Of a stretch of 27,313 bases of DNA, positions 4,567-24,096 are shown in pieces. The notes beneath the pieces are model-generated. The model ran no database searches. It was not told the origin of the DNA and worked only from the letters and a program-made list of their open reading frames with translations. A program made the position numbers and the translations under genes. The stretch spans positions 1-27,313 of the forward strand of contig DATFXM010000021.1 of NCBI GenBank assembly GCA_035315885.1. The letters run 5' to 3'. Origin of the DNA: Blastocatellia bacterium (GTDB lineage Bacteria; Acidobacteriota; Blastocatellia; UBA7656). Within the stretch, counting starts at the first letter, position 1. The number at the start of each line of letters is the position of its first letter.

Positions 4567-5193
4567 TTAAGACGCAGGAGCCTTTGCGCGTCTTGGCTTG
4601 CGCTCGGTGATTTCGGGCAAGTACTTGTTAGCCACCCTGTAAGCGAGTAGAAGCACCAACACAAGACCGAACATAATCGGCTCGCGCGTATCTGCCTTGA
4701 CCAGCATATAGTAGTGAATCACTGCAGCGGCGGCGGCCGCATACGTCGCGGTGTGAATCCTGTTCCAACGCTTTCCTCCCAGCCTTTTGATCCAGCCTTG
4801 AGTCGAAGTGACCGCGAGTGGCATCAGTAGAACGAACGCGCCCATACCCATTGTAATGAAGGGTCGCTTGAGGATGTCCTGGCCGATTGCAGGGAAGTCA
4901 AAGAACTTGTCGAACCAGACGTACGTGAGAAGATGAAGCGTCGCATAGAAGAATCCGTAAAGGCCGAGCATGCGACGGAGCTTTACCATCCAGGGCTGGC
5001 CGATGATCTTCCGCAGCGGGGTGACGCACAGGGATAACAGTAGAAAGATCAGCGCAAGCACGCCGGTTGTGCGAGTGGCAAACTCGGTAGGGTTGGCGCC
5101 GAGATGATGATAATAGGCATCCAACCCGAGAAGCGTGAGCGGTACGAGACTGCTAACGAAGATTACGAATCTCGAAAACTGCGTGTCGGTCAT
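4567..5193 (-). CDS. msrQ: Protein-methionine-sulfoxide reductase heme-binding subunit MsrQ (YedZ)
   Basis: 208 aa, six predicted TM helices, conserved His in TM helices and the YedZ ferric-reductase-like family length. Lies downstream of msrP on the same strand. Confidence 0.85.
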   Translation of the reverse strand: MTDTQFSRFVIFVSSLVPLTLLGLDAYYHHLGANPTEFATRTTGVLALIFLLLSLCVTPLRKIIGQPWMVKLRRMLGLYGFFYATLHLLTYVWFDKFFDFPAIGQDILKRPFITMGMGAFVLLMPLAVTSTQGWIKRLGGKRWNRIHTATYAAAAAAVIHYYMLVKADTREPIMFGLVLVLLLAYRVANKYLPEITERKPRRAKAPAS

Positions 5194-5200
5194 GGTTGAC

Positions 5201-5370
5201 GGTTTCTAGTTTCTGGTTTCTGGTTCTTATTCTCTGCTCGACTACAACAGTCGATTGGTTGATTGACGAAAGTACTCAACACTTCGAAGCGTGCTCGGGT
5301 TCTCTCCATGGGCTGGCATTTGTAGGGCAATTCGTCAGGAACGAGAAACCAGAAGCCATAAACCCGAGAC
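5201..5370. repeat. Heptamer-array palindromic element E2 (GGTTTCT family), intercistronic between msrP and msrQ
   Basis: Left arm ggtttctagtttctggtttctggttc (5201-5226). Right arm gaacgagaaaccagaagccataaacccgag (~5339-5368). Inner complementary segments gctcgggttctc / aacccgag are also present. Confidence 0.65.
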
Positions 5371-5376
5371 CGATCA

Positions 5377-6363
5377 TCAAAAGTATTTTTTCAAATCCAT
5401 TCCTGAATAAAGGCTCGCGACCTGGTCGCCGTAGCCGTTAAACAACAACGTGTCTCGAAGACCGAATTCACCAATGCGCCTCTCTCTTTTCTGACTCCAT
5501 CGAGGATGATCGACTGCAGGATTCACGTTCGAGTAGAAGCCGTACTCGCTCGGTGCGGCGAGATTCCAGGTCGTTCGCGGCTCCTCGGCAACGAGCCTGA
5601 TCTTGATAATCGACTTGATGCTCTTGAACCCGTACTTCCACGGAACGACCAGCCGTAGAGGCGCGCCGTTTTGCGGCGGCAGCGTCTCCCCGTAGAGACC
5701 GTTCACAAGAATGGCCAGCGGATGCAATGCCTCATCAAGGCGCAATCCCTCAACATAAGGCCAGTCCAAAACTGAACTCCTTATATTCGGCATCTGGTTG
5801 CCGTCAGCCAGCGTCACAAATTGAACGTATTTTGCGGCAGAATTCGGCTGCACCTGCTCCAGAAGCTTAGCCAATGGGAAACCAACCCACGGAATGACCA
5901 TCGACCATGCTTCCACGCACCGGTGTCGGTACACCCGCTCTTCGAGCGGCGCCAGCTTCACTATTTCGTCGATATCGAAAGTTCGCGGTTTGTTGCAAAG
6001 TCCTTCGACTTCAACTGTCCACGGTCGCGTGACGAAGTTCCGCGCTTTGCTTGCTACCGCACGCTTGTCGGTAGAGAACTCATAGAAGTTGTTGTAGTGG
6101 GTGATGTCGTCGTACGAGGTCTTCTTTTCGTTTGCGATCTCCGGAGCCGGCGACTGTTCGCCGGAGCCCGATTGCTGAACGCCCTCGATTTTGTTGCCGG
6201 AGGTCGATTTCTGATCCGGCGTGGCGAAGTAGCGGTAGAGCAGGCCCGTGCCCAGCACAGAACCGGTCAGCGCGGCCCCTCGCAGAAACGTCCTGCGACT
6301 CATGTAAACGCTTTTGGGCGTGATCTCGCTCGATTTGATGTCTTCGGCTTTCTTGATAACCAT
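5377..6363 (-). CDS. msrP: Protein-methionine-sulfoxide reductase catalytic subunit MsrP (YedY), molybdopterin-dependent, Tat-secreted
   Basis: 328 aa. The N-terminal extension plus twin-arginine signal ([15 protein letters not shown]) is collinear with E. coli YedY. Sulfite-oxidase-family Mo-MPT domain present. Confidence 0.9.
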
Positions 6364-8882: not shown

Positions 8883-8958
8883 GAGTACTGAGTACTGAGA
8901 GACTTCAAGTCCGCATCGGTTGCAACTCCAATCTCAGAGTTCCATACTGAGAACTTCC
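8883..8958. repeat. Heptamer-array palindromic element E3 (degenerate; GAGTACT arms)
   Basis: gagtactgagtactgagag ... ctcagagttccatactgagaacttcc. The right end abuts the ATG at 8960. Confidence 0.6.
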
Positions 8959-11794: not shown

Positions 11795-11880
11795 GAGCCG
11801 AGGGCTCAGGGGTGAGCGCTGAGGGCTCCGGCTGAGTGCTGAGTTTGTTGGTCTCTCGGTACTCAGCACTCAGCACTACT
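11795..11880. repeat. Heptamer-array palindromic element E4 (GCTGAGT / ACTCAGC arms)
   Basis: gctgagtgctgagt (11830-11843) ... actcagcactcagcact (11861-11877). The right arm overlaps the stop codon of the zinc-ribbon gene. Confidence 0.65.
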
Positions 11881-13620: not shown

Positions 13621-13717
13621 GGAGAGTAGGCAGTAGGCAGTTAGTTTCGTGGTTTCTGGTTCCTTCTTTCTGGTTCGCGTGCGTGTCTGATTTCTTAGAG
13701 CCTACTGCCTACTCTCC
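13621..13717. repeat. Heptamer-array palindromic element E5 (GTAGGCA / TGCCTAC outer arms, GGTTTCT inner repeats)
   Basis: ggagagtaggcagtaggcag ... gtttcgtggtttctggttccttctttctggttc ... gcctactgcctactctcc. GTTGAC lies immediately on both flanks (13612-13617 and 13719-13724). Confidence 0.7.
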
Positions 13718-15822: not shown

Positions 15823-17394
15823 TTATTTGTCGCTTCGAGATCCATCTACCGGCGCCTGAAGAGACGATAAGAACTCGCGAACAACTTGTTTGACGTCGCG
15901 CTTCTCGCCGTCCACCGCGTAGTTCAGCTTTCGCATGTCGGCATCAGTGATCTTGCCAGCCAGAGACTCCAGCGCGGCTAATATCTCCGGCGATCGCTCC
16001 AGCGTCGCCTTTCGGAACACGGGCGCTGCCTCGTACGGTGGAAAGTAGTGTCGATCGTCGGTTAGTTGATAGAGATTCAGTTTATCGATCAACCCGTCTG
16101 TAGAGTTGCCGGCGATCACGTCTACCTGGCCGCCTGCAAGAGCTCTGTACGTTAGCGAAAGGTCCATCTCACGTGGAGGCTCGCCGAATCTCAAGCCGTA
16201 GGTGTGCACCAGACCGGGATAACCGTCCTTCCGATTGATGAAGTCCTGACCGAAGCCGGCGTGCAATCTCGGCGCGACGGCGGCGAGGTCCGAAATGGCT
16301 TTTAGATGAAGGTTGGCCGCATCCTGACCTCGCACCAGTATTGCAAAGGTGTTCTGAAACCCGAGTGGTGAAAGCCACTCAAGTCCGAACTGCGATTGGT
16401 ACTCGCTTTTGACTTGATTGTAGACTTCGCGCGGATCGGTTAGTGGCTCGTGCTTGAGAATCGCAGTAAACGCGGTTCCGGTGTACTCGACGTAGCCGTC
16501 GATCTCGCCATCCACAAGCGCCCGATGACAGAGGTCACCCCCGAGCTCGAACTGGCGTTTGACCTCGATGCCGGTTCGGGACTCGATGAGCTGAGCAGTC
16601 ATTTCGCCGAGAATAACCTGTTCAGTGAAGTCCTTCGATCCAACTACAATTTGGTGCGTTTCAGTCCTGGAAAAAACAATGCTCGCCACGGCTACGGTGG
16701 CTATTAGAACCGTTGCGCCAACGAGCCTGCGAGCGCGGTGCTGACTTCTTATCCTGGACGGCGCGAGTGATCTCTCAACCAGCCCGAGCAAGAAGTCAGC
16801 CGCAAGGGCCATCAACGCGGCAGGAAGTGCGCCTGCCAACACCAGAGTGTTGTCACTCATTCGGAGGCCGCGAAAGATAAGGGTGCCCAGCCCGCCCGCG
16901 CCGATTGCCGCTGCGATAGTGGCAGTGCCGACGGCGATCACCGTAGCGACGCGGACGCCTGCGATGATTACCCCCATCGCCAGCGGCAGCTCTACCTGCA
17001 AGAGCATCTGCCGGTCGGTCATTCCCATCCCGCGTGCGGCTTCTTTGACCGCGGGATCGACGCCATTGATGCCCGTGAAGGTGTTGCGGATTATTGGGAG
17101 GAGAGAGTACAGGAACAGTGCGATTATTGCCGGCAGGCGTCCGATGCCGTACCTGCCCAGTATCGGAATCAGAAAGCCGAACAGCGCCAGACTCGGAATG
17201 GTTTGAAGCACGTTAGCGATGCCAAGCACCGGTTTGCTGAGAGATGGCTTGCGAGTCAATAGAACGCCGATCGGCAGGCCAGCGGCGGTCGCCGCTGCCG
17301 TTGCAATCGCAACCAGGATGAGGTGCTCGAGCGCAAGTTGCCCAACCTGGGTCCGATTGTTGATCAGGAATTCGAAGAGTCGGCTCATTATCAC
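15823..17394 (-). CDS. ABC transporter permease fused to a C-terminal betaine-type substrate-binding domain (OpuC/ProWX/EgtU architecture)
   Basis: 523 aa. The N-terminal ~210 aa form a BPD-transport TMD of ProW/OpuCB type (EAA-like loop). The C-terminal ~290 aa form an OpuAC/ProX-family periplasmic binding domain. Confidence 0.85.
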   Translation of the reverse strand: MIMSRLFEFLINNRTQVGQLALEHLILVAIATAAATAAGLPIGVLLTRKPSLSKPVLGIANVLQTIPSLALFGFLIPILGRYGIGRLPAIIALFLYSLLPIIRNTFTGINGVDPAVKEAARGMGMTDRQMLLQVELPLAMGVIIAGVRVATVIAVGTATIAAAIGAGGLGTLIFRGLRMSDNTLVLAGALPAALMALAADFLLGLVERSLAPSRIRSQHRARRLVGATVLIATVAVASIVFSRTETHQIVVGSKDFTEQVILGEMTAQLIESRTGIEVKRQFELGGDLCHRALVDGEIDGYVEYTGTAFTAILKHEPLTDPREVYNQVKSEYQSQFGLEWLSPLGFQNTFAILVRGQDAANLHLKAISDLAAVAPRLHAGFGQDFINRKDGYPGLVHTYGLRFGEPPREMDLSLTYRALAGGQVDVIAGNSTDGLIDKLNLYQLTDDRHYFPPYEAAPVFRKATLERSPEILAALESLAGKITDADMRKLNYAVDGEKRDVKQVVREFLSSLQAPVDGSRSDK

Positions 17395-17402
17395 TCGGGG
17401 CG

Positions 17403-17527
17403 GTTTAGAGTTTAGGGTTTAGGGTTTCTGTTTCGAGTTTCTGGTTGCTGGTTCCCTTGTCGCGGCGCTTGGTTCCTGGAGCTTCGCGCTGTCAATCAAA
17501 CCAGAACCAGAAACCCGAAACCCTCTA
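17403..17527. repeat. Heptamer-array palindromic element E6 (GTTTAGG / GGTTTCT family), intercistronic between the ABC ATPase and permease genes
   Basis: Left arm gtttagagtttagggtttagggtttctgtttcgagtttctggttgctggttcc. Right arm aaaccagaaccagaaacccgaaaccctc, which overlaps the ATPase stop codon. Confidence 0.7.
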
Positions 17528-18295
17528 CTGCATCGTCTCCACAAAAGCCCTCGCTTCCGGATCGTCGAGTTTCAGGAATTCTTCGGTGGACGTAAGTGCG
17601 ATCAAGTGCCCGTCCTTGAACAGACCAATTCGGGACGCGAGAAGGAAGGCCTCGCGTACGTCGTGTGTCACAAACACGATCGTCTTGTTCAGCCTCTTTG
17701 AGAGCGCCGCAAACTCACGCTGAAGCCCTGCGCGAGTCAGCGGGTCAAGCGCTCCAAACGGCTCGTCCATAAGAATGATGGGCGGGTCGCCCGCCAACGC
17801 TCGAGCCACACCGACTCGTTGCCGTTGGCCGCCCGACAACTCCGCCGGCGAACGATGCGCAAAGGACGCGTGATCAAGTCCCACCAGGTCGAGTAGCTCC
17901 CGAACCCGCGTTGCAATTCTTTCCGGAGCCCAGCCGTTCAGTGTTGGCACCAGTGCAATGTTTCGTTCAACCGTGAAATGCGGAAACAGTCCAGTCTCCT
18001 GAATCACGTACCCAATATGACGCCGGAGTTTGATGGCGTCCCATAGAGTCGTCGGTTTGCTTTCGACCAGGATTTCGCCCTCAGTCGGGTCAAGAAGCCG
18101 GTTGATCAGTTTTAGAGTCGTAGTCTTTCCTGATCCACTGCGGCCCAAAAGCACCAGAGTTTCGCCGGCGGACACCACAAAATTCAAATCGGAGACAAGG
18201 TTCTTTCCTTGTGGAATGGTCAGCGTGACATCCCGGAACTCAATCGCGGCGGCGGGTACATCCCGTTCGTCTGTTCGGGGCTGAGGTTTTTCCAC
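17525..18295 (-). CDS. ABC transporter ATP-binding protein, betaine/ProV-OpuCA-like but lacking the C-terminal CBS pair (EgtV-like)
   Basis: 256 aa. Walker A GRSGSGKTT, signature LSGGQRQRV, Walker B ILMDEPFGALD and the H-loop are present. GTG start lies 5 nt after the egtD stop. Confidence 0.85.
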   Translation of the reverse strand: MEKPQPRTDERDVPAAAIEFRDVTLTIPQGKNLVSDLNFVVSAGETLVLLGRSGSGKTTTLKLINRLLDPTEGEILVESKPTTLWDAIKLRRHIGYVIQETGLFPHFTVERNIALVPTLNGWAPERIATRVRELLDLVGLDHASFAHRSPAELSGGQRQRVGVARALAGDPPIILMDEPFGALDPLTRAGLQREFAALSKRLNKTIVFVTHDVREAFLLASRIGLFKDGHLIALTSTEEFLKLDDPEARAFVETMQ

Positions 18296-18300
18296 CTGAG

Positions 18301-19329
18301 CTAGTCCACTGAAAGGAGGTTGAAGCTGAACCGACGACCAGCATCAAACCAGGTCCGCGAGAGCTTGAAACCACCCCTCCTCGCGATCTCGCCCAGCTTG
18401 TCCAGATCGTATTTGTACGAGCTTTCGGTGTGAACCGATTCACCGGGTTCGAACTCGACTTCAAGGTCGAGCGCACCAATTCGAATTGTCTGCCGAATCC
18501 GACTCACAAGGTGCATCTCTACGCGGCTGAGCGCTTCGTTATAACACGAGCGATGCTCGAACTCTTCCAGCTTGAAATCGGAGCGCAATTCGCGGTTGAT
18601 GCGGACCAGAAGGTTGAGATTGAAAGCGGCAGTGACGCCGAGGGAGTCATCGTAAGCCGGTATCAGCACGTCGGGTGATTTCTTGAGGTCAGCCCCAAGC
18701 AGGAAGGCATCACCGCTATCAAGCAACTCGCGGACGGCGCTGAGAAACGATACAGCTTCGTCCGGGTCGAAGTTGCCGATGTTCGACCCGAGAAAGAGCG
18801 CTACTGTGCGCTCGGAACCGCCGTGTTGTGCGCGCTCTCGCTTAAAGGCTTCCAAAGCGGTGAAGTAGTCTGCTGCGTACGCGGTGATGCGAAGTTTCGG
18901 GTAGGCGCGCAGCAGCTCCCGGCTGCTTGTCTGAAGGCTTGCCGGCGAGATGTCTACGGGCAAGTAATGGAGCTCCGTTTGACGACGAAGGAACGCCTCG
19001 ATGAGGAGGCGCGTCTTCTCGGCACTACCGCTTCCGAGCTCGATCAGCCGGACCGAAGGGCTGGAATTCGCGATCGAGGTTGCGATTTCGGTGGATCGCT
19101 CGCGCAGAATTTGGCTCTCGGCTCGCGTCAGGTAGTATTCAGGCAGGCAACAGATCGCTTCGAAAAGGCGAGACCCCAGTTCGTCGTAAAAATACTTTGG
19201 AGGTAGATGTTTGGGTTTTTGAGTCAGCCCGTTGCGCACATCGCGCCCTAGCGCGCTGCTGTCGCCTCCGTCCGCAAGTTGATGGATGATCAAGCGATCG
19301 TCTTGTTGAGGATATGTTTTTTGCGCCAC
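18301..19329 (-). CDS. egtD: L-histidine N-alpha-methyltransferase EgtD (hercynine synthase, ergothioneine pathway)
   Basis: 342 aa, collinear with mycobacterial EgtD: PPKYFYDELGSRLFEAICCLPEYYLTRAE, ELGSGSAEKTRLL, LFLGSNIGNF, PAYDDSLGVTAAFNLNLL, ESSYKY. Confidence 0.9.
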   Translation of the reverse strand: MAQKTYPQQDDRLIIHQLADGGDSSALGRDVRNGLTQKPKHLPPKYFYDELGSRLFEAICCLPEYYLTRAESQILRERSTEIATSIANSSPSVRLIELGSGSAEKTRLLIEAFLRRQTELHYLPVDISPASLQTSSRELLRAYPKLRITAYAADYFTALEAFKRERAQHGGSERTVALFLGSNIGNFDPDEAVSFLSAVRELLDSGDAFLLGADLKKSPDVLIPAYDDSLGVTAAFNLNLLVRINRELRSDFKLEEFEHRSCYNEALSRVEMHLVSRIRQTIRIGALDLEVEFEPGESVHTESSYKYDLDKLGEIARRGGFKLSRTWFDAGRRFSFNLLSVD

Positions 19330-19417
19330 CTGCCCCTCACCTGGACTATCTCCGGAAGCCCCGCAACTGCTATGGACATCTCGTAATGCTACCGTAGTTC
19401 ATTCATCGTGCCAAACG

Positions 19418-19672
19418 AGAGTTCTGAGTACTGAGTTCTGATTTAATGGCCCTGAGTAGGAGATGAGGGGATTGAGAGAGCCTCTGCGGCCTTTGCGAAC
19501 CATGCGGCCTTTGCGTGAAACCCGGATTTGCCCCCTGCAGCGGATTGTGGACACAGCGCTTTGTCCCCGGGGTCAACAGCTTGGAAGTCTGGTTTCACGC
19601 AAAGACCCCGGAGGCTCTCCTCATCCCCTCATTTCCAACTCAGCACTCAGGACTCAGCACTAAGAACTGAGC
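19418..19672. repeat. Composite nested palindromic element E7 (~255 bp): GAGTTCT-array outer arms, GGAGATGAGG inner arms, further inner inverted repeats
   Basis: Outer gagagttctgagtactgagttctga / actcagcactcaggactcagcactaagaactgagc. Inner aggagatgaggggattgagagagcctc / gaggctctcctcatcccctcat. Innermost ggcctttgcgtgaaacc / ggtttcacgcaaagacc. ggcctttgcg also occurs as a direct duplicate. Confidence 0.75.
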
Positions 19673-20892: not shown

Positions 20893-23800
20893 TTAGAACG
20901 TGAACTTCACTGCAAGCTGCAACTGACGCGGATCGCCCACTCCGACTCTCAGAAAGCCGTCGAAGTTGAACAAAGCCGGCGAGACCAGCGGGTTGACGTT
21001 GTTGTCATTATTAAACGTGTTGAACATCTCGACCATCGGAGTCAGGGTCATTCGATCGTTGAACTTGAATGGGCGCAGCAGCCGCCAGTCGAACGAGAAG
21101 TAATCGTTGTTCTTCCGGATGCTGTTTCTTCCCTGATCAACGCCGTTCACCACACGCGGGTTCGGAGTGATGGGTTGCGCGGAATGAGCTTGCATTCGAG
21201 TGTTCAACTGAAAGCCCCAGCCGGGTTCGCAGTAGGCGAAGAAGTTGAACTTGTGCCGCTCGTCCCGGTCCGACAGCGAGTAGTCTTTACCGAAGTCGTT
21301 GTGATCAAACACTCGGTCGGTGAACGGATCGCGTTCGTTCGAGTCGTCGTCCAGATCCTTCGAGTACACGTAATTCCCTTCGAGCTGGAACCGGTTGCTG
21401 AAGCGCTTCCTCAATCCAACGGTGAGTCCGCGATACAGCGATTTCGCCGAGCTCTGCGTAACGAACACGTCGCCCAATTGAGGTCCGAACGGCGCAGGTC
21501 CTTGGTTGATGTTTACAAACCTGGTAAGGTGTACGCCCTTCGAATGGGTGAAGTCGACATACGCCGCCCAGTTCGGAGACAGCTCCTGTTCGAAAGCTAC
21601 ATTGGTCGTGTAGATCCTGGGATTGGCGTAGTCTTTTGAAAAGACCCGCACACCGGTAAACAGAGGGAAGGTCCCCGGCGGAACGTCGGGTATCGGCGCA
21701 AGCCCAGGCCACGTCGGAGCGCTGGCAAACCCCTGACGAATCAGATCCGTACTCGCGAAGTTAGTTCGTTGTTGAGCGCCGTTGGTTGTGATCGAGCCAA
21801 CCTGGCTGAGCATATTCTGCCGGGCATTGTAGATGCCCCAGCTCGCCCGCAGCACTGACCTGCCCTTCTTGCTTATGTCCCAGGCGAATCCGACGCGCGG
21901 CTGAAACATCTTCCACTGATCGTGCAACGTGCCGTCTGACGGGAACCGCGGATCGTTCAGGAAAGGACCGTAAGCAGTTTGCTCCGGAGGCACGACAGCA
22001 TTAGGAAACACCTGGGCTTCCCATCTCAGGCCGTAGTTGAGCGTGAGGTTTGGCAGGATCTGAAACTTGTCCTGCGCGAAAAATGCGATGTCATCATTCT
22101 TGATTGTGGACGCGCCTGGAGGGGGAACACCGCTCAGACCGCTCGGTATTCCGTCCTGCAGGTAGAACAAGAGAGGACCGCCGCTCGTGGCCCCGCCCGG
22201 ACACGTTGCCGGCAACGTCACGAAGGTTCCGTTGGAGCAGCCGATGGTGTTTGGCCCAAACCCTCCGGGCGCGGCGGGTGACGCGTAACGAAGGAAACCG
22301 GTGACGCTGTCGAACAGGTAGCGGCCGGTGAAGAATCCGCGAAACACCTGGTCGTTCAGCGTGTGAATCCACTCGCCTCCCATCTTAAATGTGTGTTTTC
22401 CCTCGATGATCGAGAAGCTGTCCCGGAGCTGCGTTCGCCAGATCAGCTCGTCTACATTCGGCTGCAGGAAGAACGGATTTCCGAATCTGAAAGTTGGAAC
22501 GAAACCCATTCCGGTGTCCGCAAGAAGGTTTGACTGTGTCGCCTCACGCGGACGAGACTCTCGCGAATAGGTAAAGTGAGCTTCGTTCAGCTTTGTTGGC
22601 GAAAGCGTGCTGAACAGGTTGAGGTTGAACACATTGATCTTCGATGGCCCCTCAGTGCCGTTCGCCGACGTTCCGTAAGTCGCCACGTCGAAGGTCTGGT
22701 TTTCATTCTTCGAGTGGTCAAAGTTGTACGACGCGCTGAGCTTGTTGTTAGCCGTCAGACTCCAGTCCAGCTTGCCCAGGACAGCGCTATTTCGAATCGG
22801 GTGTTTGACCGCCAACCCCTCGTTTTGTCCAAGCTTGCTTTGGAAGAAATTCAGCAGCGCAAGCCGCTGACAATCGGGGCTGCCGTTGATCAGCGCTTCG
22901 TTTGCGGGCACGGTAGGAGCCGCAACAGGGCATGGCGTTCCGATCGGAATGCTGAGGTTGGAGCGAGTGAGATTCGAAATGATCTGCTCAAACGCACCGA
23001 AGAAGAAAACCTTGTCTTTTATGATCGGTCCGCCGATGGTTCCGCCGAACTGCTCTCTATGAAAATCGGTGAGTGGCTGGTGGTCGGAGGTCTCGGCAGA
23101 AAGACCCTCAAGCCGTTGATAATGAAACAAGCTGCCGTGGATGGTGTTGGTGCCCGATTTCGTGATCACATTTATAACGCCGCCGGCGGTTCTGCCGAAC
23201 TCGGCGCTGGCTCCGCTCGAGATCACCTGGAATTCCTTGACCGCCTCCAGGGTGATGTCGATCGCGGCGCGTTGACCACCTGCCTGTTCGCCGAAGAATC
23301 CATTGTTGTAGTCTCCACCGTCCAGGCTGATGTTATTGAATATGCCGCGCTGTCCGGAGAAGTTAATTTCGTCACCGTCCGGGCCCTGGGTGATGGCGAC
23401 GCCTGGGGTCAGCGTAAGCAGGTCCTCAAACTTGCGCCCGAGAATCGGAGTTGTGCTCACCGAGAGCTCGTTCAGGGTCGTGCTCGATTCAGTCTTGACC
23501 GTATCGATGGTTGGGGCCGCGGTGATTGTGATCTTCTCCTCTAGACGGGAGACTTTCATGTTGAGAGAGAGCGTTATTGCCTGCCCGACCGTGAGCTCGA
23601 GGTTTTGCTGAATCAGCGTTGCAAACCCCTGTTTGCTGGCGGTTAGGGTGTATTTCCCGGGTTGGAGCTGAAGAAAAACGAATCTTCCGTCGGAGCCGGT
23701 TTCCAGCTTCTTGCTGAAGTTGGTGTCCAGATTCAAGACTTCGACGCTCGCTCCGGCGACAACCGACCCTTGTTCGTCGAGCACCGTTCCCTGGATTACT

Positions 23801-23898
23801 CCGGTGGTGATCTGAGTCTGGCCTGCAGCCGAATGCACGAGCGCGAGCATGAGCAAAACTGATAGCAAGATTCTTGAGCGTGCCTGAGCTTTTTTCAT
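20893..23898 (-). CDS. TonB-dependent outer-membrane receptor with an N-terminal carboxypeptidase-regulatory-like domain
   Basis: ~1000 aa. Signal peptide (MKKAQARSRILLSVLLMLALVHSAAG). CarbopepD_reg motif (GVIQGTVLDEQGSVVAGASVEVLNLDTN...GKYTLTASKQGF). Plug and beta-barrel regions, ending in an aromatic residue (KFTF). The start is placed at ATG 23898; the ORF-track start is at 23964. Confidence 0.85.
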   Translation of the reverse strand: MKKAQARSRILLSVLLMLALVHSAAGQTQITTGVIQGTVLDEQGSVVAGASVEVLNLDTNFSKKLETGSDGRFVFLQLQPGKYTLTASKQGFATLIQQNLELTVGQAITLSLNMKVSRLEEKITITAAPTIDTVKTESSTTLNELSVSTTPILGRKFEDLLTLTPGVAITQGPDGDEINFSGQRGIFNNISLDGGDYNNGFFGEQAGGQRAAIDITLEAVKEFQVISSGASAEFGRTAGGVINVITKSGTNTIHGSLFHYQRLEGLSAETSDHQPLTDFHREQFGGTIGGPIIKDKVFFFGAFEQIISNLTRSNLSIPIGTPCPVAAPTVPANEALINGSPDCQRLALLNFFQSKLGQNEGLAVKHPIRNSAVLGKLDWSLTANNKLSASYNFDHSKNENQTFDVATYGTSANGTEGPSKINVFNLNLFSTLSPTKLNEAHFTYSRESRPREATQSNLLADTGMGFVPTFRFGNPFFLQPNVDELIWRTQLRDSFSIIEGKHTFKMGGEWIHTLNDQVFRGFFTGRYLFDSVTGFLRYASPAAPGGFGPNTIGCSNGTFVTLPATCPGGATSGGPLLFYLQDGIPSGLSGVPPPGASTIKNDDIAFFAQDKFQILPNLTLNYGLRWEAQVFPNAVVPPEQTAYGPFLNDPRFPSDGTLHDQWKMFQPRVGFAWDISKKGRSVLRASWGIYNARQNMLSQVGSITTNGAQQRTNFASTDLIRQGFASAPTWPGLAPIPDVPPGTFPLFTGVRVFSKDYANPRIYTTNVAFEQELSPNWAAYVDFTHSKGVHLTRFVNINQGPAPFGPQLGDVFVTQSSAKSLYRGLTVGLRKRFSNRFQLEGNYVYSKDLDDDSNERDPFTDRVFDHNDFGKDYSLSDRDERHKFNFFAYCEPGWGFQLNTRMQAHSAQPITPNPRVVNGVDQGRNSIRKNNDYFSFDWRLLRPFKFNDRMTLTPMVEMFNTFNNDNNVNPLVSPALFNFDGFLRVGVGDPRQLQLAVKFTF

Positions 23899-23972
23899 GT
23901 TCCGCCCCCAATATGTTGTAATGGTGTCTGCGTTGGCGCGCATTCTATAGCGGCTTTGAAACACACGTCAAC

Positions 23973-24096
23973 GAGTAAGAGTACTGATTTCTGAGTCATG
24001 AGTTCTGATGGGTTAAGGGAGATGATGGGTTAAGGGAGATGAGGGATGAGGAGATGCGGAGATGAGGAGACTCAGAACTCAGAACTCAGAACTTCC
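23973..24096. repeat. Heptamer-array palindromic element E8 with a tandem 17-mer and GGAGATGAGG core
   Basis: Left gagtaagagtactgatttctgagtcatgagttctga. Core gatgggttaagggagat x2 then gagggatgaggagatgcggagatgaggaga. Right ctcagaactcagaactcagaacttcc. Confidence 0.75.

Follow-up and report, generated by a model that had tools for sequence, protein, structure and literature searches.

The window analysed here is a 27,313-nt stretch of DNA from a Blastocatellia bacterium, a soil acidobacterium (contig DATFXM010000021.1, assembly GCA_035315885.1). It carries a three-gene locus on the minus strand (19329–15823). In this locus egtD, which encodes a predicted hercynine synthase, is followed by the gene for an ATP-binding cassette (ABC) ATPase and then by the gene for a permease fused to a substrate-binding domain (SBD). 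A convergent M48/TPR gene borders the locus on one side and a divergent OmpA-like gene on the other. The gap between the TAG stop of egtD and the GTG start of the ATPase gene is 5 nt (CTCAG), and no alternative in-frame start lies 5′ of the conserved IEFRDV motif of the ATPase. An earlier note on this DNA had described egtD followed after 5 nt by a 256-aa ATPase without CBS domains and then by a permease–OpuAC fusion, and its positions and identities all agreed with ours (Table 1). The 5-nt gap makes translational coupling of egtD and the ATPase gene plausible. An independent assembly (Logan SRR5262248, 8.7 kb) showed the same gene order and spacing, including the identical 256-aa ATPase call. 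The permease scan also recovered a 4.3-kb metagenome contig (L087), whose permease is identical to that of the window over the residues matched.

Table 1. Features of the egtD–transporter locus, repeat elements of the window and examples of Binatota-type clusters.
Feature	Position	Strand	Basis
egtD, L-histidine N-alpha-methyltransferase (predicted hercynine synthase), 342 aa	18301..19329	-	TIGR03438, Pfam, predicted function
ABC ATPase, 256 aa, no CBS pair, GTG start	17525..18295	-	Pfam/NCBIfam, ORF positions
Intercistronic spacer, 130 nt, long GTTTCTG heptamer hairpin	17395..17524	-	Fold and repeat scan
Permease transmembrane domain (TMD), residues 1–235, type I ABC importer	16690..17394	-	BPD_transp_1 match
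Fused SBD, residues 236–523, OpuAC / cluster F-III	15823..16689	-	OpuAC, E = 1e-60
Sigma-70-like promoter candidate TTGGCA-17 nt-TAGCAT, 57 nt 5′ of the egtD start	19386..19414	-	Consensus scan, weak
Inverted ACTCAGA/AGTTCTG heptamer arms, egtD–ompA intergenic region	19420..19671	.	Repeat families I1, D1, D4
Tandem-heptamer hairpin elements	1767-1871, 5202-5363, 8884-8900, 11861-11877, 13645-13675, 17410-17528, 19420-19668, 23980-24093		
Binatota-type cluster examples (about 33 further loci among L105–L166)	L154 1772-8720, L114 1389-7572		

The egtD product scored 357.5 bits on the NCBIfam model TIGR03438 (cut-off 290.9) and 369 bits on Pfam Methyltransf_33 (PF10017, E = 2e-110), and it aligned to the M. 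smegmatis EgtD structures with E = 4e-70. The histidine pocket of M. smegmatis EgtD, which we take to be Y39, F47, Y56, N166, Y206, T213, M252, E282 and S284, was renumbered on the PDB sequence. The window protein conserved 9/9 of these residues (Y48, F56, Y65, N186, Y226, T233, M272, E302 and S304). We consider the egtD product very likely to be a real hercynine synthase.

The ATPase contains an ABC_tran domain only. It spans positions 6–227 of the 363-position proV model, so that the C-terminal CBS part is absent, and it lacks the tandem CBS domains of the osmoregulated OpuA/OpuC/ProU importers. It was 68–77% identical to the ATPases at related egtD-linked loci, and the permease was 71–80% identical to its relatives. 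The permease–SBD protein (523 aa, 17394–15823) carries BPD_transp_1 at residues 39–210 and OpuAC at residues 248–510. The BPD_transp_1 permease, the ABC_tran ATPase and the dedicated SBD that characterise a type I ABC importer are all present. Databases label the fusion protein as a glycine betaine or osmoprotectant transporter. Comparison of the SBD with the PDB returned relatives at E = 1e-43 to 1e-61, among which EgtU, OpuCC, OpuBC and ProX scored alike. The five best matches were engineered nicotine/acetylcholine sensors.

Pfam scans of 19 other long open reading frames (ORFs) of the window, leaving out a 1023-aa receptor-like ORF at 20893–23964, detected no egtB, egtA/glutamate-cysteine ligase gene (gcl), egtC, egtE, eanB or OvoA-like gene. 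Searching the window by tblastn with an EgtB and a ligase query gave no match and no egtB remnant in the egtD–ompA interval. The absence of egtB, egtC and egtE from the window, as reported earlier, was confirmed by these scans with the same ORF left unscanned. With that limit, the 27.3-kb window also lacks any gene for sulfur insertion beside egtD, whether for EgtB, EanB or the metallopterin ergothioneine synthase (MES). Rfam at gathering thresholds detected no known RNA in the window, and hence no riboswitch. An MsrQ/MsrP-like pair (a Ferric_reduct membrane protein and an Oxidored_molyb protein) is located at 4567–6363; it belongs to a different molybdoenzyme family and is unrelated to MES.

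Related genomes were scanned from the EgtD side with one genome per species, which gave 74 loci with an EgtD relative. The closest loci were Blastocatellia metagenome-assembled genomes (MAGs) with EgtD identities of 58–66%. A five-gene form, in which egtB is divergent from egtD–gcl–ATPase–TMD/SBD, was found at 13 Blastocatellia loci, and parts of it were found at contig ends at 3 more (about 16/74). The egtB gene of this form lies approximately 300 bp 5′ of egtD wherever the contig is long enough. Its product contains DinB_2 and FGE-sulfatase domains and scored 368 bits on TIGR03440 (cut-off 360). The intervening gene encodes a GCS2-family glutamate-cysteine ligase of approximately 455 aa, which scored under the EgtA and plant-type GshA cut-offs. 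The egtB gene stands beside egtD at about 15 orthologous Blastocatellia loci. The three-gene form, as in the window, was found at seven loci (L006, L007, L015, L018, L059, L002 and L040) and on the metagenome contig P0048. Among the testable three-gene loci, tblastn found no egtB within at least 4 kb upstream. The MAGs of L040 and of another locus, L004, are labelled 'uncultured Clostridia', and their loci are clearly Blastocatellia-like; these MAGs are probably mis-binned.

The 3′ flank of the permease gene (CarboxypepD_reg-TPR, M48-TPR and LiaF-like genes) is common to the window, eight five-gene loci and one three-gene locus, which indicates that the window holds the same chromosomal locus minus egtB and the ligase gene. 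As judged from gene order, the window locus is a reduced orthologue of the Blastocatellia five-gene cluster, from which egtB and gcl were lost at the site. The absence of egtB would accordingly be secondary. In a neighbour-joining (NJ) tree of EgtD, the three-gene loci were scattered among the five-gene loci. The EgtD proteins of the three-gene lineages were mutually only 60–67% identical, and their pockets were still intact. Repeated loss of egtB and gcl across the three-gene loci is likely; it is graded so, and not as proven, because the tree carries no support values.

The transporter-side scan gave 80 metagenome loci with at least 60% identity to the permease–SBD, of which 45 had at least 2.1 kb of upstream sequence and were testable. 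An EgtD-family gene, or the gcl that follows egtD, was directly upstream at 39/45 testable loci. The egtD gene was co-directional, as in the window, at 5 loci, and an EgtD-family gene (33–36% identity) was divergent from the ATPase start at 33. At the remaining locus gcl was upstream at the contig end. The divergent EgtD-like proteins kept 9/9 histidine-pocket residues and scored 283 bits on the egtD model, just below its cut-off. The loci with these divergent genes form a conserved Binatota-type cluster (Table 1), which comes at least in part from Candidatus Binatus. It comprises genes for a secreted FGE-domain protein, a LysE exporter, a di-iron FA_desaturase-like membrane enzyme, an EgtD-like protein (on the opposite strand), the ATPase, the permease–SBD and an amidohydrolase. 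No full EgtB was found in the Binatota-type clusters. Their binding domains were 84–91% identical to a protein assigned by NCBI to Candidatus Binatus. The product of the Binatota-type cluster may be a modified hercynine, which would leave the cell and be taken up again.

The adjacency of egtD and the transporter genes far exceeds what chance would give, as dozens of independent genomes and metagenome contigs show it. The link proposed in the earlier note held at 39 of the 45 testable permease loci and, from the EgtD side, at the five-gene and seven three-gene loci. This conservation is strong support for egtD and the transporter being functionally connected.

The pairing is also found in other lineages. 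Ten loci of Eremiobacterota (Vulcanimicrobiota) have egtD convergent with an OpuC-like system with two permeases, one of which is fused to a binding domain. No EgtB was found within 10 kb of these egtD loci. One Gemmatimonadota locus has an SBD–TMD fusion, with reversed domain order, and an ATPase divergent from egtB–egtD. The binding domains of both lineages were only 35–45% identical to the window SBD and were placed on other tree branches. These branches, gene orientations and domain orders indicate that egtD became associated with transporters of this family several times. The egtD–transporter pairing recurs in about four soil phyla, and many of the egtD-linked loci have no sulfur-inserting enzyme nearby. 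At the Eremiobacterota loci L026–L034 and L036 (e.g. L026 7730–14611), an amino-acid permease adjoins egtD, and the substrate-binding protein (SBP) has Gln at the position of the cage residue Tyr341 of S. pneumoniae EgtU (SpEgtU).

The binding pocket of the window SBD was mapped by alignment to SpEgtU numbering (Table 2). The sequences of SpEgtU, H. pylori EgtU (HpEgtU) and Listeria EgtU were recovered from PDB alignments, and the mapping is by alignment only. HpEgtU (8DP6) was brought to the top of the matches by masking the query residues identical to the nicotine/acetylcholine sensor. The S. pneumoniae and Listeria sequences were recovered via a Lacticaseibacillus plasmid EgtU homologue.

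Table 2. Pocket positions of the window SBD, SpEgtU and HpEgtU (SpEgtU numbering).
Position	Window	SpEgtU	HpEgtU
242	K254	K	K
243	D255	I	P
244	F256	G	S
246	E258	E	E
273	G285	G	G
274	G286	T	G
275	D287	T	G
293	Y304	F	Y
296	T307	T	T
337	F346	Y	F
339	N348	N	N
341	F350	Y	Y
375	D384	E	D
379	R388	R	R
401	L412	P	I
419	N430	Y	F
443	Y454	Y	Y

The window SBD keeps the carboxylate clamp K254/T307/R388 and the acidic D384. On this alignment, the ligand is one that carries a carboxylate, and not choline. The Thr instead of Asp at position 296 also argues against a choline-only binder. The determinants of ergothioneine affinity reported for SpEgtUC in PMC9732360 are the invariant Gly244 and the Phe293/Tyr337 switch. 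The same source gives affinity losses of 100-fold for G244F, 10-fold for F293Y and 10-fold for Y419F. The window SBD has neither determinant (F256, Y304 and F346), and HpEgtU is also without the F/Y switch. In SpEgtU, the nearest neighbours of the thione sulfur are the residues at positions 243 and 274, and position 275 is next to the ring N-delta-1. The window has Asp255 and Gly286 as thione neighbours, where SpEgtU has Ile243 and Thr274 and HpEgtU has Pro and Gly. The window loop at positions 274/275 (G286 and D287) is one residue shorter than in SpEgtU. The earlier note had proposed to check the aromatic cage and the thione contacts against EgtU; in the alignment, the cage residue Tyr419 is replaced by Asn, Ile243 by Asp and Thr275 by Asp. 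We infer that the window pocket is built unlike the sulfur site of EgtU. With D255 and D287 it could suit the N-H donors of an imidazole or imidazolium. N430 at cage position 419 was at first taken as unusual; this was dropped, because the position is A, Q or F in related binding proteins of proteobacteria.

The pocket was invariant in all Blastocatellia egtD-linked domains and nearly so in the 80 metagenome loci. The closest unlinked relatives (60–65% identity) are encoded in cyanobacteria-like three-gene ATPase–permease–SBP operons, and 0/3 of those examined were egtD-linked. They read KNFE...T...ER, and the egtD-linked clade reads KDFE...D/N/S/T...DR. In the sequences compared, Asp255 and Asp384 track the linkage. 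D287 is a feature of Blastocatellia, and N, S or T takes its place in the Binatota-type relatives. The window SBD was 36% identical to SpEgtUC and 38% to HpEgtUC, and these two were 33% identical to each other. Ergothioneine binding could still be compatible with such divergence, as SpEgtU and HpEgtU are so far apart and HpEgtU has no F/Y switch. In an NJ tree whose support values were not read, the SBD fell in neither the S. pneumoniae-type nor the H. pylori-type EgtU clade and was sister to the cyanobacterial-type unlinked transporters. By sequence, the SBD belongs to a distinct clade, termed KDFE after its K-D-F-E pocket motif. The description of the transporter as 'EgtUV-type' stands for its two-gene architecture; it does not extend to the SBD, which lies outside both EgtU clades and differs at Gly244 and F293/Y337.

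More distant relatives of the SBD were found on plasmids. On plasmid pRlX4 of Rhizobium ruizarguesonis (L084 4578–12063), a 44%-identical binding protein is encoded between hutC-hutH and an ornithine cyclodeaminase-family gene. Genes for a second SBP, two ABC permeases and an ATPase follow further 3′. This cluster may serve the catabolism of histidine or a histidine betaine, and the hutH-like gene possibly encodes an ergothionase-type lyase. A Lactobacillaceae plasmid (L075 1820–5642) carries an S. pneumoniae-type EgtU gene (E = 8e-83 to 7TXL) and an ATPase gene, followed by a gene for an NAD(P)/FAD-dependent oxidoreductase, flanked by insertion sequences (IS). A second one (L076 1826–5747) has the same gene arrangement, known from gene order alone. 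Both suggest mobile ergothioneine uptake, perhaps with a reductase.

On balance we favour, with some reserve, the reading that the three genes form a make-or-take module for a histidine betaine, that is, for hercynine or ergothioneine. EgtD would trimethylate histidine to hercynine, as its fully conserved catalytic pocket suggests. The ATPase and the permease–SBD would form a type I ABC importer by their domain content. The likeliest substrate of the SBD would be hercynine, ergothioneine or both, and the cell would make the betaine or take it up or recapture it under common control. The KDFE clade is almost always encoded beside an EgtD-family gene, which makes a histidine betaine the most likely substrate. 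Hercynine is the one metabolite common to all linked contexts, and ergothioneine is common only to those where EgtB is present. Since about four soil phyla show the pairing, the cargo of the pump is probably hercynine or ergothioneine and not one of the usual osmoprotectants.

Several observations weigh against the make-or-take module. The substrate of the KDFE clade is deduced from sequence and gene context, and the physiological rationale for making and importing the same compound is an assumption. Two substitutions that cost affinity in SpEgtUC, G244F and F293Y, match the window residues F256 and Y304. At three diagnostic positions (Phe 244, Tyr 293 and Phe 337) the SBD resembles the glycine-betaine binder AfProX. 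D384 was considered as a sign of an imidazole-bearing ligand and then dropped, because AfProX carries a Glu analogous to the acidic 375, together with the clamp residues (PMC9732360). Other amino-acid betaines are the ligands of related binding proteins elsewhere. No EgtD-family neighbour was found at 6/45 testable permease–SBD loci, and in a few Blastocatellia (L003, L019 and L035) egtD is an orphan with neither partner. Gene presence and absence were scored by tblastn within 6–10 kb flanks of MAGs and metagenome contigs, and some of the taxonomic labels are doubtful.

A further reading, which we hold only tentatively, is that EgtD and the KDFE-type importer form a widespread soil hercynine system without sulfur insertion, in which the SBD is a hercynine-selective receptor. 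It would span the three-gene Blastocatellia loci, the Eremiobacterota loci and the Binatota-type clusters. Hercynine or a derivative would be the end product, released and then taken back. The SBD would then be the functional opposite of EgtU, which discriminates 10,000-fold against hercynine.

A general importer of compatible solutes (glycine betaine, proline betaine or similar), placed beside egtD by a shared osmotic or desiccation stress regulon, seems rather unlikely, and under it hercynine itself is perhaps a compatible solute. The AfProX-like residues and the database names point to such an importer. The OpuF compatible-solute importers share the fused architecture, and the closest unlinked relatives lie in plain ATPase–permease–SBP operons. 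However, a shared regulon leaves the 39/45 EgtD-family adjacency, in three arrangements, unexplained, as well as the independent egtD links of other subfamilies in three other lineages. The ATPase also lacks the CBS osmosensing module, and D255 and D384 separate the linked clade from its unlinked relatives.

It is improbable that the transporter is a true EgtU orthologue, that is, an ergothioneine-specific high-affinity importer that rejects hercynine as in S. pneumoniae. The two-gene architecture is the same, the K, T and R of the clamp and the acidic 375 are conserved, and the five-gene relatives are predicted to make ergothioneine because EgtB is present. The validated EgtU domains are themselves only 33% identical, so that ergothioneine binding tolerates divergence, and HpEgtU is likewise without the F/Y switch. 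Yet Gly244 is replaced by Phe, both Ile243 and Thr275 by Asp, and the cage Tyr419 by Asn, and the SBD falls in neither EgtU clade. Ergothioneine is also not the shared metabolite, since EgtB is missing from the three-gene and Binatota-type contexts.

We give equally little credence to an importer of the precursor, in which the SBD takes up L-histidine or partly methylated histidine for EgtD. Histidine, like hercynine, is common to every EgtD-linked context, and the change of a cage Tyr to Asn with two extra Asp could suit a primary ammonium group. However, the Asn base and three aromatic residues of the cage persist, a pattern of quaternary-amine binders, and no histidine-binding member of the SBD subfamily was verified in this analysis. 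The 44%-identical Rhizobium binding protein beside hutC-hutH would fit histidine uptake, but the adjacent hutH gene may just as well encode a lyase of the ergothionase type with a betaine as its substrate. The amino-acid permease beside egtD in Eremiobacterota is a further point for histidine uptake.

Permeases of the BPD_transp_1 type with a tethered SBD are a hallmark of type I ABC importers. Export of self-made hercynine, which the earlier note had offered as one example, is therefore mechanistically unlikely and can be set aside as highly improbable, even though a producer needs a release route for a zwitterionic betaine and the Binatota-type clusters hold an exporter, which is a separate LysE-family protein.

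The spacer between the ATPase and permease genes contains a hairpin of −50.2 kcal/mol (z −3.7) without a T-run, with arms at about 17410–17454 and 17503–17528. It is built of GTTTCTG heptamers (repeat families D2, I11 and I21). Hairpins of two heptamer-repeat families occupy seven or more of the window's intergenic regions (Table 1). The GTTTCTG/CAGAAAC family gave 11 heptamer matches against 0.02 expected, and the ACTCAGA/AGTTCTG family gave 16 against 0.09 expected. These elements resemble the REP or STRR type. Other heptamer repeats occur at the same ATPase–permease junction in related Blastocatellia. An overlap of 1–23 nt between the ATPase and permease genes is seen in approximately 75/95 related loci, so the coupling of these two genes is ancestral and is broken in the window by the 130-nt repeat hairpin. 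Spacers at this junction were found in only some Blastocatellia, and their sequences are unrelated to each other. The hairpin was considered as a conserved operon feature and rejected; the overlap in most relatives and the unrelated spacers elsewhere mark it as a lineage-specific repeat insertion, outside the design of the system. In the three-gene locus L040, a 995-nt insertion (1359–2364) lies between the ATPase and permease genes. The heptamer arms at 19420..19671 sit where related genomes carry egtB. The promoter candidate 5′ of egtD is weak evidence, as the consensus scan gave 2 sites where 1.3 would be expected in this region.

The full-text literature, as far as it was accessible, contained no report of an egtD/egtB cluster joined to an OpuC/EgtU-type transporter. 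An earlier mention in the H. pylori EgtUV paper (Cell, 2022) is possible, and apart from that paper the statement that operon linkage of egtD to an EgtUV-like architecture is undescribed still stands. The new observation is a separate clade of the EgtU transporter family that appears tied at the operon level to the first enzyme of the pathway; no new mechanism is proposed. The EgtU papers present ergothioneine uptake as something done by bacteria that do not make it, such as S. pneumoniae, Listeria and H. pylori. Should hercynine or ergothioneine prove to be the substrate, producers would also import or recapture betaines, which bears on the exchange of ergothioneine and hercynine in soil, and hercynine may have its own role. 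The pocket residues D255, F256, D287, F350, D384 and N430 would then represent a second, independently evolved recognition of a histidine betaine. The egtD linkage is also a simple genomic marker with which to annotate the KDFE clade, now labelled glycine betaine transporter.

The systems closest in layout are EgtU/EgtUV of S. pneumoniae (SPD_1642-1643), BilE of L. monocytogenes and EgtUV of H. pylori. They have the same two-gene layout with a C-terminal OpuAC-type SBD, and EgtU is described as an ATPase and a permease–SBD fusion in PMC12922746. By alignment and domain content, the window importer would also share with them the cluster F-III fold, the Lys/Thr/Arg clamp, an acidic residue before the Arg, the Asn cage base and the import direction. 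It differs in its identity of only 36–38%, its place outside both clades, and its residues: Phe at 244, Y/F at 293/337, Phe at 341, Asn at 419, and Asp at 243 and 275. The window importer is in an operon with a hercynine synthase in soil bacteria, whereas EgtU was described in non-producing host-associated bacteria.

AfProX, OpuC, OpuB and OpuF belong to the same binding-protein subfamily; AfProX shares Phe 244, Tyr 293 and Phe 337 with the window, and OpuF shares the fused TMD–SBD. The window system differs from them in its ATPase without CBS, the change of one cage Tyr to Asn, the extra Asp255 and Asp287, and the near-obligate linkage to the EgtD family. The amino-acid-betaine catabolic binding proteins (Rhizobium hutC-hutH-linked and S. 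meliloti pSymA hydroxyproline-betaine-like) are 40–44% identical to the window SBD and share with it the K-x-F-E, Y-T, E/D-R and Y scaffold and a non-aromatic residue at 419. They are free periplasmic proteins in catabolic contexts, whereas the window SBD is fused to the permease and linked to biosynthesis. The mycobacterial egtABCDE cluster has EgtD in common with the window, and the orthologous locus of related Blastocatellia adds EgtB and an EgtA-like ligase; egtC and egtE were not identified in the one related five-gene cluster that was annotated (L010). Unlike the mycobacterial cluster, the Blastocatellia operon includes an ABC importer, and the window keeps egtD alone.

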